IMG/VR virus record: IMGVR_UViG_3300034066_002191
From: a virus
DNA length: 64,000 bases
Direction: 5' to 3' (one strand)
The notes beneath the pieces were generated by a model, which had not been told where the DNA came from, made no database searches, and was given only the letters and a program-made list of their open reading frames with translations. Shown in pieces: positions 14,970 through 18,960 of this stretch. Position numbers and translations under genes: made by a program. The stretch's first letter is position 1. Each line of letters opens with the position of its first letter.

Positions 14970-15311
14970 CTATGTCCTTCCATATGCGTCTTCAATCCTA
15001 ACAATGTCTTCTTCATTGCATATTTTTCCAAGTTGGACTTCTACAATCATTATACCATCATTTCCACCAGAAATGCGATGTTTGGTTAAAACTGGAATAA
15101 AAACATAATCTCCAACTTTTATATTTTTAGTTTCTTCGTTTAATTCTAGTTTACCACCACCAGAAACTACAACCCAGTGCTCATCTCTTTGATTATGATA
15201 TTGCAAAGATATTTTTTGATTTGGATAGATATAGAGTCTTTTTACCTTGTATTCTTCGTTTTCTTTTAGATTTTCATACCAACCCCAAGGTCTATCAAAT
15301 CTATCTGTCAT
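14970..15311 (-). CDS. type II mannose-6-phosphate isomerase cupin domain
   Basis: RPWGWY, SLQYH..RDEHWVVV, EVQLG..EEDIVRIED.YGR. Confidence 0.9.
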   Translation of the reverse strand: MTDRFDRPWGWYENLKENEEYKVKRLYIYPNQKISLQYHNQRDEHWVVVSGGGKLELNEETKNIKVGDYVFIPVLTKHRISGGNDGIMIVEVQLGKICNEEDIVRIEDAYGRT

Positions 15312-16132
15312 ACTTCACAATTCGTAAAGTCTACTTGGCCGTTTCTAGTTGCCCAAATTGGATATTCTTTACCATAAGTATTCCAGATCCTAGCTTGTTC
15401 TGGTCCAACTGGAACTCCACTCATCCCAGCAGCATTCCAAATAGTTTCATAAGTATCATCCTCATGGAAAGTAAAATCATGTTCTTCAGACTTAATTTTC
15501 AATAAAAGAGAGAGGATCGATTGATCGTGTCTATGTTCTCTGAAAATCTCATTATTTGTCAATTTCGATGGACTATCATCTAGATATCTCCCATCATCTT
15601 TGACACAAATTGACATCCATTTTTCAACTAAATCTCGAATCATTTGAGTGTTTTTCAAAAAGAAAATTCCAGAAATTATTTGTTTTGTCATAAAATGTTC
15701 ATCGTCATCTCCCATAATATGACAATAAGTATCCATTTTTGTCCATTGAATTTCAGGTAAATTCAAAGTAAAAAACACTCCTTCAGTATCAATACATTCA
15801 TCATAATACTGATTCAATTTCACCAATCCATTTTTATTCAATTCACAACCAGAATCAACATACAATAGAATATCATTTTCTGGGATACTTTTTAGAGCCT
15901 CCAAAACAAAATAGGGTTTACATGCATAATATCCATAGTATCTCTGGTTTAATCCAGAACGAAGAGACATCATTGGTTTTATATGATTGTACCAAAAAGA
16001 ATTGTTCTCCAAGTCATCTTCCCCATATTCAAGTATTGACTTAAATATTCCAAAATTTTTTGCTTGATTTTTGATTCTCTTCTTTCCTATAGAAAAATTA
16101 TTATCCCCAAAATAAGTTAAGTGCAAATTCAT
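15308..16132 (-). CDS. putative glycosyltransferase-like protein
   Basis: KPY, LLYVDSGC, EHRHDQSILSLL motifs. Confidence 0.65.
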   Translation of the reverse strand: MNLHLTYFGDNNFSIGKKRIKNQAKNFGIFKSILEYGEDDLENNSFWYNHIKPMMSLRSGLNQRYYGYYACKPYFVLEALKSIPENDILLYVDSGCELNKNGLVKLNQYYDECIDTEGVFFTLNLPEIQWTKMDTYCHIMGDDDEHFMTKQIISGIFFLKNTQMIRDLVEKWMSICVKDDGRYLDDSPSKLTNNEIFREHRHDQSILSLLLKIKSEEHDFTFHEDDTYETIWNAAGMSGVPVGPEQARIWNTYGKEYPIWATRNGQVDFTNCEV

Positions 16133-16158
16133 ATGGCAGTAATCACTGATTCATACGC

Positions 16159-16193
16159 ATTATACCAAAAAAGAGGAGTTGTTGTCAACTCCT
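16159..16193 (-). promoter_or_regulatory. sigma70 promoter embedded in a terminator hairpin, heading the glycosylation island
   Basis: GAGGAGTTGacaaCAACTCCTC + U6; TTGACA-N18-TATAAT. Confidence 0.75.
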
Positions 16194-16199
16194 CCATCA

Positions 16200-16615
16200 G
16201 GTCTGCCATGCACGCCACCAATTCTTTAACTGGAAATTGGAAACCAGGCGGGAGTAACCTCCACATCCGCACCAGTCGTCATATTTAATGTCCATACGAC
16301 GAGGACAATTTTGGGTCACAATTGGCTCCACCACTTAGTTTTGAGAAACTAAGAAAAGTTGTGCTAATTTACTCAATTCAATCATACTAAAGAAAACACA
16401 TAATAACAACATATCCCATAATCTAAATTTAATTACAAAAGGAACAATAAGTAGTCCCCCAATAAACTTCAATAATAGACCACTTTTGAAATCTCCCCAT
16501 AACATAATTTGATAACCAATAATGAGAAAAAGATTTCCAAGGTACCTAAGAACACTAGTTTTAGACATAAGGGAAGCACTCCGACCAGGGCAAGTTTTAA
16601 GTCATTCCGAGACTA
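16200..16615 (-). ncRNA. cyanophage manA/wcaG-like structured RNA (tandem pseudoknot modules), interrupted by an ORF
   Basis: Four stem/pseudoknot modules each followed by UGGY(G/C); upstream of PMI/gmd/wcaG and near tRNAs, the known context of manA/wcaG motifs; family name from memory. Confidence 0.6.
16335..16568 (-). CDS. small membrane protein (about 3 TM)
   Basis: 77-aa hydrophobic ORF. Confidence 0.7.
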   Translation of the reverse strand: MSKTSVLRYLGNLFLIIGYQIMLWGDFKSGLLLKFIGGLLIVPFVIKFRLWDMLLLCVFFSMIELSKLAQLFLVSQN

Positions 16616-16619
16616 TTTA

Positions 16620-16844
16620 CTATGCAGGAACATCGACTTGAAGATCTTCACAAAGAAGGCTCAAAATTAACTCATAATCAGCTTCCGATTCCTGATAAAA
16701 CTGAATTCCTTGCTCTTCATAAAACTTTTTAACTTTCTTGAAGAGTTTTGGTTGATCATATTCTAGATCAATTTCTCGGTTTGCGGCACGAGTAAGAGTA
16801 TAAATTGATTTGCGAAACTTTGAATTGAAAGGATGATTAGACAT
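16620..16844 (-). CDS. hypothetical protein
   Basis: ORF from MSNHPF; TTGACA-N17-TATAAT promoter at 16895-16867. Confidence 0.7.
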   Translation of the reverse strand: MSNHPFNSKFRKSIYTLTRAANREIDLEYDQPKLFKKVKKFYEEQGIQFYQESEADYELILSLLCEDLQVDVPA

Positions 16845-16917
16845 TAGTTGAATTTGATTCGTTCCTATTATAAGATAGAATTGGTGGGATGTCAAGAGAA
16901 AATCAGATTAACAAATC

Positions 16918-17130
16918 TTATGATGCTTCCTCATGATCCGTATGAATTCTGATAAGATCGTCATCAGAACAAGTTCCACCAAATACTTCTACCATTTCAT
17001 TATATGGAACCATAATTGCATTTCCATGCTCACTTGTTATAATTAATGATTCACCATTTTCTACTCTTTCCATCAAATAGTCAAAATCAGATTGAAATTC
17101 TTCTACTGTAAATGATTGAAGTTCTGCCAT
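16918..17130 (-). CDS. Phd/YefM-like antitoxin-fold protein
   Basis: FTVEEFQSDFDYLMERVENGESLIIT..GNAIMVP pattern. Confidence 0.6.
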   Translation of the reverse strand: MAELQSFTVEEFQSDFDYLMERVENGESLIITSEHGNAIMVPYNEMVEVFGGTCSDDDLIRIHTDHEEAS

Positions 17131-17174
17131 TTTTATGAAATTAAATTTACACAGATTAGGTAACAAATTCCTAA

Positions 17175-18880: not shown

Positions 18881-18960
18881 TACTCGAAACAGGAATCGAA
18901 CCTGCAAGCCGAAGCGGTTGATTTTGAGTCAACTGTGTATACCAATTCCACCATTCGAGC
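18881..18960 (-). tRNA. tRNA-Leu(CAA)
   Basis: GTTGA-CT-CAA-AA-TCAAC, variable arm with TTCG loop. Confidence 0.92.

Follow-up and report, generated by a model that had tools for sequence, protein, structure and literature searches.

The window analysed here is a 64,000-nt stretch of T4-like cyanomyovirus DNA, whose closest named relatives are Synechococcus phages, for example S-SRM01 and S-CAM7; megablast returned no close DNA relatives among GenBank phages. On the minus strand, the region of interest runs from a promoter through a 74-aa ORF, a first structured RNA unit (module A), a 77-aa ORF and three further RNA units (modules B, C and D) to a terminator with a second promoter, followed by sugar genes. 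Seven tRNA genes lie upstream of the array region in the window. The features are, in order of transcription:

16867-16895, minus strand: predicted sigma-70-type early promoter, TTGACA-17-TATAAT (12/12, consensus match)
16620-16844, minus strand: 74-aa ORF, phrog_552, a PHROG family without assigned function (profile match)
16580-16616, minus strand: unit 1 (module A), A-type (covariance model R1)
16566-16582, minus strand: clamp of unit 1 and start codon of the nested ORF (read from the sequence)
16335-16568, minus strand: nested 77-aa gene, phrog_2318 (ORF and profile match)
16313-16356, minus strand: unit 2 (module B) (covariance model R2)
16204-16308, minus strand: units 3 and 4 (modules C and D), wcaG RF01761 (Rfam model)
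16166-16195, minus strand: predicted intrinsic terminator, 10-bp stem (16195-16172) and T-run (consensus match)
16159-16188, minus strand: predicted promoter of the downstream operon, TTGACA-18-TGgTATAAT (12/12, consensus match)
15308-16132, minus strand: first gene of the sugar operon, 274 aa, weak GT34-like match, outside the RNA (ORF and profile match)

The promoter at 16895-16867 is likely the start of the transcript that carries the array, and 16895-16166 on the minus strand reads as a single short early transcription unit, from predicted promoter to predicted terminator, in which both small genes lie together with the four structured RNA units. The 74-aa ORF, whose family is also found upstream of arrays in other contigs, has its stop codon 3 nt before unit 1. 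All four modules of the original prediction were recovered on the minus strand close to where it had placed them, C and D by Rfam match and A and B by models R1 and R2. Single-sequence folding is weak for the units (z = 0 to -1.5, against z = -3.7 for the terminator); the support for the modules is comparative.

Modules C and D, together with the small hairpin between them, match the wcaG model (RF01761) at 16308-16204 with 68.4 bits against a gathering score of 42 and over the full length of the model (positions 1-98). The P1, P2 and P3 hairpins are present, as are both UGGYG anchors (UGGUG at 16274-16270 in unit 3, UGGCG at 16217-16213 in unit 4), and the middle clamp hairpin between the two modules is GGAGGUUACUCC. 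The pseudoknots claimed for C and D pair GUCC with GGAC in unit 3 and CUGG with CCAG in unit 4, and they are backed by a flank-loop complementarity that is locus-specific, both in core units (3.19 vs 2.78 +/- 0.08 nt) and in terminal units (4.03 vs 3.72 nt), with 0/500 permutations as good in either comparison. Of the two Rfam families suggested for these modules, wcaG stood, with the full-length match, and manA (RF01745) was rejected, giving no match in 16100-16700 even at E <= 10. By these model searches, C and D are the published wcaG motif, not manA.

The wcaG motif was defined in 2010 as a riboswitch candidate from marine metagenomes and cyanophages, about 98 nt long, with two UGGYG elements and located ahead of polysaccharide genes (Weinberg et al., 2010; PMC2864571). 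The supplement to that paper remarks that UGGYG is present twice, which 'sometimes' points to a site for a dimeric protein. In the literature searched, we found neither functional work on wcaG after 2010 nor a report of its ligand. Units 3 and 4 share with the published motif the three hairpins, the two UGGYG elements, the cyanophage source and the position before polysaccharide genes. As published, however, wcaG is the ~98 nt alone, whereas here and in most relatives it forms the tail of an array of 2-5 units. The array adds an A-type unit that is absent from the Rfam model as well as protein genes between the units, and it stops at a terminator and promoter instead of running into a regulated gene.

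Unit 1 is of this A-type. It consists of a stem AGUC/GACU, a loop UCGGAAU, an A-rich tail and the anchor UGGUC (16587-16583). A covariance model (R1) built from 95 distinct A-type units of other contigs, with the window excluded, matches it at 16616-16580 with 42.2 bits (E ~1e-11), the sole match in the 64 kb. The class is defined by a 3-5 bp stem, a 7-nt loop NYGGRNN and a UAAAA-rich tail followed by UGGU(C/G), and in 1.1 Mb its units occur 165 times on the RNA strand versus 3 times antisense. Compensatory changes are found at 4/4 stem pairs among the 95 distinct units, while the percentage of stem pairing is inflated by the choice of the stem by regular expression. No such selection bears on a tertiary pair that joins position 2 of the loop to position -4 of the tail and is C-G in 63 units and U-A in 32, thus present in 95/95. 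The original prediction had assigned module A the same topology as C and D. This unified topology had to be given up: A is rather a 4-5 bp hairpin whose second loop base is Watson-Crick paired with the A-rich tail. In the alternative pairing of the loop YGG with CUG of the anchor both sides are invariant, and the covarying contact is loop-2/tail -4. The clamp of unit 1 carries a Shine-Dalgarno-like GGAG (16582-16579), UUCCC and, after a 10-nt spacer, the AUG of the nested gene (16568-16566), and the junction ...CGGGAGCAAACCCCUUAUG that follows unit 1 recurs among other contigs.

Unit 2 (module B) is made of UUUC, the hairpin CUUAGUU/AACUAAG, UGGUGGAG and a clamp GCCA..UGACCC, and is matched at 16356-16313 with 55.6 bits (E ~4e-12) by model R2, which was built from 38 distinct B-type units of other contigs, again excluding the window. 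The class shows the hairpin, UGGUGGAG and a GUCA..UGACCC clamp, always with UUUC before the hairpin, and compensatory changes at 4/7 stem pairs among the 38 distinct units. B-type units give no pseudoknot signal (98/500 permutations were as good), in agreement with the earlier remark that B lacks a pseudoknot partner. Covariation is present in the stems of A and B, in the pseudoknots and in the tertiary pair, and the grouping of A and B with C and D holds up against independent models and a conserved array. By these models, units 1 and 2 are further members of the unit family to which units 3 and 4 of wcaG belong.

More than 120 viral contigs were gathered using the exact wcaG core, and 123 cyanomyovirus contigs entered the unit census. 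This set lacks arrays whose cores diverge from the exact pattern used to gather it, and the design of the pattern also fixes the 5' pseudoknot strand of unit D. The census is crude but strand-controlled and counts 494 units on the RNA strand versus 8 antisense; the parser is heuristic, some of its 'H:oth' calls being Shine-Dalgarno-like UGGUGAUCC and one A-like call lying within an ORF. As a rule, the Rfam wcaG motif closes an array of 2-5 units on the 3' side, and each unit follows the same grammar: a helix, directly followed by a single-stranded UGGY(G/C) anchor and then by a short G/C clamp. In H-type units the helix forms a pseudoknot with the 5' linker, and in A-type units it docks onto the A-rich tail of the unit. 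Four flavours are distinguished by the sequence after the anchor, namely cgg (UGGUCGG...), gag (UGGUGGAGUCA...), core (UGGUGCGGAUG...) and terminal (UGGCG(A/U)GC(C/A)UG). Their order is mostly kept, with cgg and gag able to swap, and at the gag slot, as now and then at the core slot, A-type and H-type hairpins can replace each other. The 2010 notes on wcaG mention matches that 'trash P1', probably because of this exchange of hairpin types. In phage Syn30, a lone A-type unit stands directly ahead of the start codon of a 2OG-Fe(II) oxygenase, with no wcaG in the 3-kb locus. The units are autonomous, with 2 to 5 of them per array, hairpin types that swap and an A-type that can stand alone. The modular RNA that had been proposed is what the strand-specific census, the variable number of units and the interchangeable hairpins reveal.

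The exact core pattern has 27 matches in 185,579 species genomes. Twenty-four are chance occurrences in GC-rich genes, and the remaining three carry the array grammar on short, low-GC, phage-like contigs in unrelated MAGs. No bona fide cellular copy of the array was found among these genomes, and the array looks phage-restricted because only those 3/27 matches show its grammar, all of them on phage-like contigs.

The 77-aa ORF matches phrog_2318 (E = 3.8e-19) and has 186 homologous clusters, those listed being 71-90 aa long, with 30 invariant columns in the family alignment. Its predicted fold has three transmembrane helices (pLDDT 75); no significant fold match in the PDB and no Pfam match were found. 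The ORF is a genuine, conserved gene, predicted to encode a membrane protein with three transmembrane segments. A language model suggests DUF6552 for the protein, which is a lead only. The gene lies between A and B and its end forms part of B, as had been noted: UUUC and the 5' arm of unit 2 are the last codons, and the UAA (16337-16335) falls in the 3' arm. The layout had been thought unusual but turns out to be a family trait, with the 77-aa ORF between units 1 and 2 in 49/123 arrays, the commonest single architecture. Other arrays hold a second, unrelated ORF family between units 2 and 3, with its own Shine-Dalgarno sequence ~35 nt past the unit, or further ORF families, and about 35 contigs carry ORF-free arrays, for example Sf-CH11, where A adjoins three further units. 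Nested genes use two recurrent inter-unit slots, one of which is filled by the 77-aa gene. The view that the ORF is inserted into the RNA, in a slot between modules, is supported because the junctions are fixed (the ORF begins directly after ...CCCCUUA of the unit-1 clamp) and because the same array exists without an ORF or with others. All of the small ORFs travelling with arrays belong to PHROG families without assigned function, and no RNA-binding partner was recognised among them by PHROG family.

At its 3' end the array runs into the predicted terminator (16195-16166), and the -35 of the next promoter (16188-16159) lies inside the terminator loop, an arrangement that the original prediction had described correctly. 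Among the 102 arrays with enough downstream sequence, 92 have a predicted intrinsic terminator 5-20 nt (median 8) past the terminal motif; 81 of these 92 terminators have a -10-like hexamer right behind the T-run, and 75 arrays have a TTGaca-like -35 within the hairpin, promoters and terminators being consensus matches here as in the relatives. Composite terminator/promoter elements called PeSLs have been described in T4-type phages (PMC2839356, PMC4122927), and the element at this locus is one of them: a terminator-like stem-loop is fused to a near-consensus, sigma-70-like early promoter in a T4-type hyperplastic region. A PeSL is a DNA-level regulatory and recombination cassette, and as such accounts for the end of the array, not for the units. 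Because it ends in the PeSL terminator/promoter, the array is placed at the 3' end of a short early transcript rather than in the leader of the sugar operon. Downstream of the second promoter are a GT-like gene, a mannose-6-phosphate isomerase-type cupin, gmd and a GDP-fucose-synthase-like epimerase, in a co-directional operon of ~11.6 kb that would be driven by the predicted PeSL promoter and in which no convincing internal terminators were found. Across contigs, ~70% of the first downstream genes encode sugar-nucleotide or glycan enzymes, in agreement with the published association; these cases are not independent, because the loci are syntenic. Processive antitermination of the EAR or put kind was considered, but nothing supports it: a predicted promoter precedes the operon, and convincing terminators were not seen within it.

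Our leading reading, held tentatively and with somewhat less than even confidence, is that the array is a multivalent docking platform on an early RNA. Each unit would by itself dock one trans-acting partner, which would recognise a helix end together with UGGYS and may be either an RNA-binding protein that forms oligomers or a tRNA through its NCCA 3' end. With each unit as its own docking site, the early RNA would act as a multivalent platform or sponge. Effects in cis could follow: a partner on unit 1 would overlap the GGAG 10 nt before the nested AUG, and ribosomes ending the nested gene would have to melt unit 2. Since the sugar operon is preceded by a predicted promoter, the array would not control it as a riboswitch acting on the terminator. 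We infer this reading from the strand-specific census, the swappable hairpins, the stand-alone unit of Syn30 and the variable ORF content, and further from the terminator and promoter at the end of the array, the lack of terminator/core complementarity and the phage-only spread. The duplicated UGGYG noted in 2010 as a possible protein site, and UGGY as the complement of RCCA abutting a helix, point the same way, as do the Rfam and covariance-model matches, the covariation and the nearness of many arrays to same-strand tRNA genes. The earlier idea of a multivalent protein-binding sponge is a reasonable extension of the remark in the 2010 supplement. On the other side, the flavours are conserved and mostly ordered, which could mean one integrated fold rather than equivalent sites, and the ~70% of sugar or glycan genes directly downstream could be what is expected of a cis-regulator, with shared synteny as the alternative. 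The co-travelling small ORFs without assigned function and the non-significant extended complementarity to tRNAs (below) also count against a docking platform.

Sponges of this kind are known. In CsrB and RsmZ, many similar short sites are carried on hairpins along one non-coding RNA, with GGA in the loop. The array likewise repeats short sites, and its A-type loops (NYGGRNN) contain GGA; it differs in that its invariant element is UGGYS 3' of a helix and its units are heterogeneous and mostly ordered. In type III toxin-antitoxin systems, the antitoxin RNA (ToxI-like) repeats almost the same sequence in tandem, and behind it come a terminator and the gene of an endoribonuclease toxin. Such a system was rejected for the array, given that the units are heterogeneous in sequence and that the place of the toxin gene is taken by a GT-like gene here and by sugar-enzyme genes in relatives.

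A tandem small-molecule riboswitch is a possible but not a likely alternative to the docking platform. Each unit would then be a minimal pseudoknot aptamer for one metabolite, e.g., a sugar nucleotide, and the output would be translation of the nested ORF via the GGAG clamp, read-through of the terminator into the sugar operon, or both. Unpaired nucleotides are highly conserved within the pseudoknotted fold, and the published candidacy with its exopolysaccharide-gene association, together with the prevalence of sugar/glycan enzymes among the first downstream genes (~70%), fits this view. The two outputs also have plausible sites, an SD-like GGAG in the clamp 10 nt ahead of the nested AUG and a terminator that starts a median of 8 nt past the last unit. 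However, pairing between the terminator 5' arm and the core is not locus-specific (-10.23 vs -10.07 +/- 0.14 kcal/mol; 37/300 permutations), and an antiterminator expression platform was rejected on this negative outcome of permuting terminator arms against cores. The predicted 12/12 promoter inside the terminator would serve the downstream operon independently, and members of the second nested ORF family are preceded by a separate SD, ~35 nt past the unit. The exchange of A-type and H-type hairpins, which occurs even in the Rfam core, is hard to fit to one ligand pocket; nor was a host-encoded counterpart found in the 185,579 species genomes or a ligand in the literature searched. The known tandem riboswitches, such as the glycine riboswitch and the glutamine glnA RNA of cyanophages, have host counterparts, defined ligands and positions in 5' leaders. 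The array resembles them as a series of repeated, related aptamer-like folds in marine phage/cyanobacterial sequences, but it is phage-only, its place is the 3' end of the transcript and ORFs lie between its units.

The tRNA version of the partner can be stated more strictly: the units would dock the free NCCA of uncharged tRNAs through UGGN, stacked on the unit helix in the manner of a T-box or a primer-binding site, and the bases after UGGN would pair on into the acceptor strand, each tail suiting certain tRNAs, among them tRNA-Pro and tRNA-Leu. We consider this unlikely. UGG(U/C) is indeed complementary to (A/G)CCA and is always found directly at a helix end. The arrays also lie close to clusters of phage tRNA genes, 82/123 being within 1 kb of a same-strand tRNA gene. 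Extended pairing was assessed in two sets of tRNAs. Against 214 distinct phage tRNA ends, the anchor tails did no better than shuffles, save for a lean toward tRNA-Pro. The second set comprised the 43 tRNAs of one 2.9-Mb cyanobacterial genome, which may not be that of the phage host, and was compared with composition-matched shuffles. Here the tRNA-Pro(CGG) end, CAUCCCG-A plus CCA, is an exact 11-nt complement of UGGUCGGGAUG (P = 0.017, with a range of 0.017-0.19 for the cgg flavour), and the UGGUC-GG of this flavour mirrors the C1-G72 pair of the tRNA-Pro genes of that genome. For tRNA-Leu(CAG), 9 contiguous pairs can form with the unpaired UGGUGCGGA of the core (P = 0.08), and the gag tail has an 8-nt complement (P = 0.15), whereas no tRNA partner of the terminal unit extends past 5 nt (P = 0.6-0.7). 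Over the four flavours, a hand-calculated Fisher combination gives P ~0.1, and an extended, primer-binding-site-like complementarity of tails to tRNA 3' ends was rejected as not significant overall against shuffles. Exact complements of the core occur in 85/201 cyanobacterial genomes, mainly large ones and not those of small picocyanobacterial size, and invasion of the acceptor stem is energetically unfavourable.

T-box leaders have a discriminator whose UGGN bulge pairs with the NCCA end of tRNA. As in a T-box, the array has UGGN beside a helix and then a terminator, with tRNA genes nearby. It carries several UGGN units per RNA, however, and the UGGN element is the only one common to both: a T-box match in Rfam, a Stem I/specifier equivalent and a mutually exclusive terminator/antiterminator switch were all absent from the array, and the host phylum is not known for T-boxes. 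Were tRNA docking true all the same, an early RNA beside phage tRNA genes would sense or sequester several uncharged tRNAs at once, making it a virus-encoded, multi-site T-box-like device, and the orphan wcaG RNA would have found its partner.

An RNA processing or stability element strikes us as improbable as well. As compact folds, the units would keep host nucleases (RNase E, RNase J, 3' exonucleases) away from early mRNAs and from precursors of tRNAs, or they would mark sites of processing that lie between tRNAs, small ORFs and the terminator. Such a role accords with the phage-only distribution, the position at the transcript 3' end ahead of the terminator and the fact that every array starts immediately behind the stop codon of an ORF or the 3' end of a tRNA; six start 0-6 nt after a tRNA, and five are followed by a tRNA at ~30 nt. 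Yet 112/123 arrays are not directly beside a tRNA, the terminator hairpin already protects the 3' end, and the invariant single-stranded UGGYS and the distinct conserved clamps would be left unexplained.

That the core instead encodes a small peptide and is conserved as coding sequence is very improbable: in one frame, the terminal variants CGA-GCC-UGA and CGU-GCA-UGA both read R-A-stop, the stop codon at +9 of the terminal motif is in that frame in 64/100 arrays and an in-frame upstream AUG is present in 30/100 (ORFs of 23-71 aa, mode 31-32 aa), but such an AUG is absent from 51/100, the length of the clamp insert is not a multiple of 3 in 42/100, no frame is open through the core in >52% of arrays and changes in the stems restore RNA pairing but alter the encoded residues, and the coding reading was rejected on these frame and indel statistics (100 arrays).

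These results bear on an RNA that has been an orphan riboswitch candidate since 2010 and has been treated as a ~98-nt leader of sugar genes. Because the array is modular and phage-only, its units are autonomous, genes lie between the units and a terminator precedes the operon promoter, the search for the partner of wcaG should turn from a single metabolite to tRNA ends or a multivalent protein. The A-type unit is uncatalogued, and defined minimal units are now at hand for binding assays. Beyond the question of the partner, the array is a clear example of genes nested in a conserved structured RNA, in which translation and folding would be physically coupled.

The number of units in the array differs even between cultured phages, as shown by S-CAM7 (MT586120), in which four units lie between the homologue of the nested 77-aa ORF and the terminator:

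L003:1284-1700 (S-CAM7 locus), units following the 77-aa ORF homologue: a gag-type unit, one additional unit with a GCCC/GGGC pseudoknot and UGGCG at its end, and then the Rfam core

Synechococcus phage Syn30 (NC_021072) carries a single A-type unit (L002:1502-1538; 28 bits with R1, the covariance model built from A-type units of other contigs), and no wcaG core was found in the 3-kb locus. The start codon of a 2OG-Fe(II) oxygenase gene lies immediately 3' of this unit. Because the annotated GTG start of the gene falls within the anchor of the unit, the ATG located 17 nt downstream is probably the real start.

Nested genes are also not limited to one family. Between units 2 and 3 of comparison loci L008, L013, L018, L026, L027 and L038, another family of nested ORFs (65-72 aa) was identified, which begins with MSKTPYELRFEIFKQAY, is preceded by a CA-rich leader (ACACACAUACACAC) and its own AGGAG, and has no match in either Pfam or PHROG. 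Its 3' end forms a hairpin that overlaps the stop codon, immediately 5' of the GGUUUC of the next unit. The terminal-motif variants UGG-CGA-GCC-UGA and UGG-CGU-GCA-UGA (window 16213-16204 and relatives) are synonymous in one frame, and a stop codon occupies this position in 64 of 100 arrays; despite this frequent stop codon, the wcaG core is not coding in a consistent fashion.

The heptamer 3' of the core anchor exactly matches the acceptor strand GCGGAUG of tRNA-Gly(GCC) in G003, a 2.9-Mb cyanobacterial genome. The discriminator of this tRNA is U73, for which a mismatch with the U of UGGU is expected, and its 3' strand CAUCCGC is shared with the tRNA-His of G003.

In the window, an additional small ORF is flanked by tRNA-Pro and the promoter of the array:

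16918-17166, minus strand, 82-aa ORF weakly matching Phd/YefM antitoxin (E = 0.002)

The equivalent position in Syn30 is annotated as 'Phd-like antitoxin', and no partner toxin for the window ORF was evident. At 18960/18961 (minus strand), tRNA-Arg(UCU) carries a gene-encoded CCA end, and tRNA-Leu(CAA) comes immediately after it with zero spacer.

Three predicted sigma-70 promoters match the consensus perfectly (12/12):

16895-16867, minus strand, sigma-70 promoter
16188-16159, minus strand, sigma-70 promoter
4543-4515, minus strand, sigma-70 promoter

These promoters divide the stretch into an RNA/ORF unit of about 0.7 kb, a glycosylation operon of about 11.6 kb and the next unit, an arrangement which suggests that the entire island is expressed early, driven by the host RNA polymerase.
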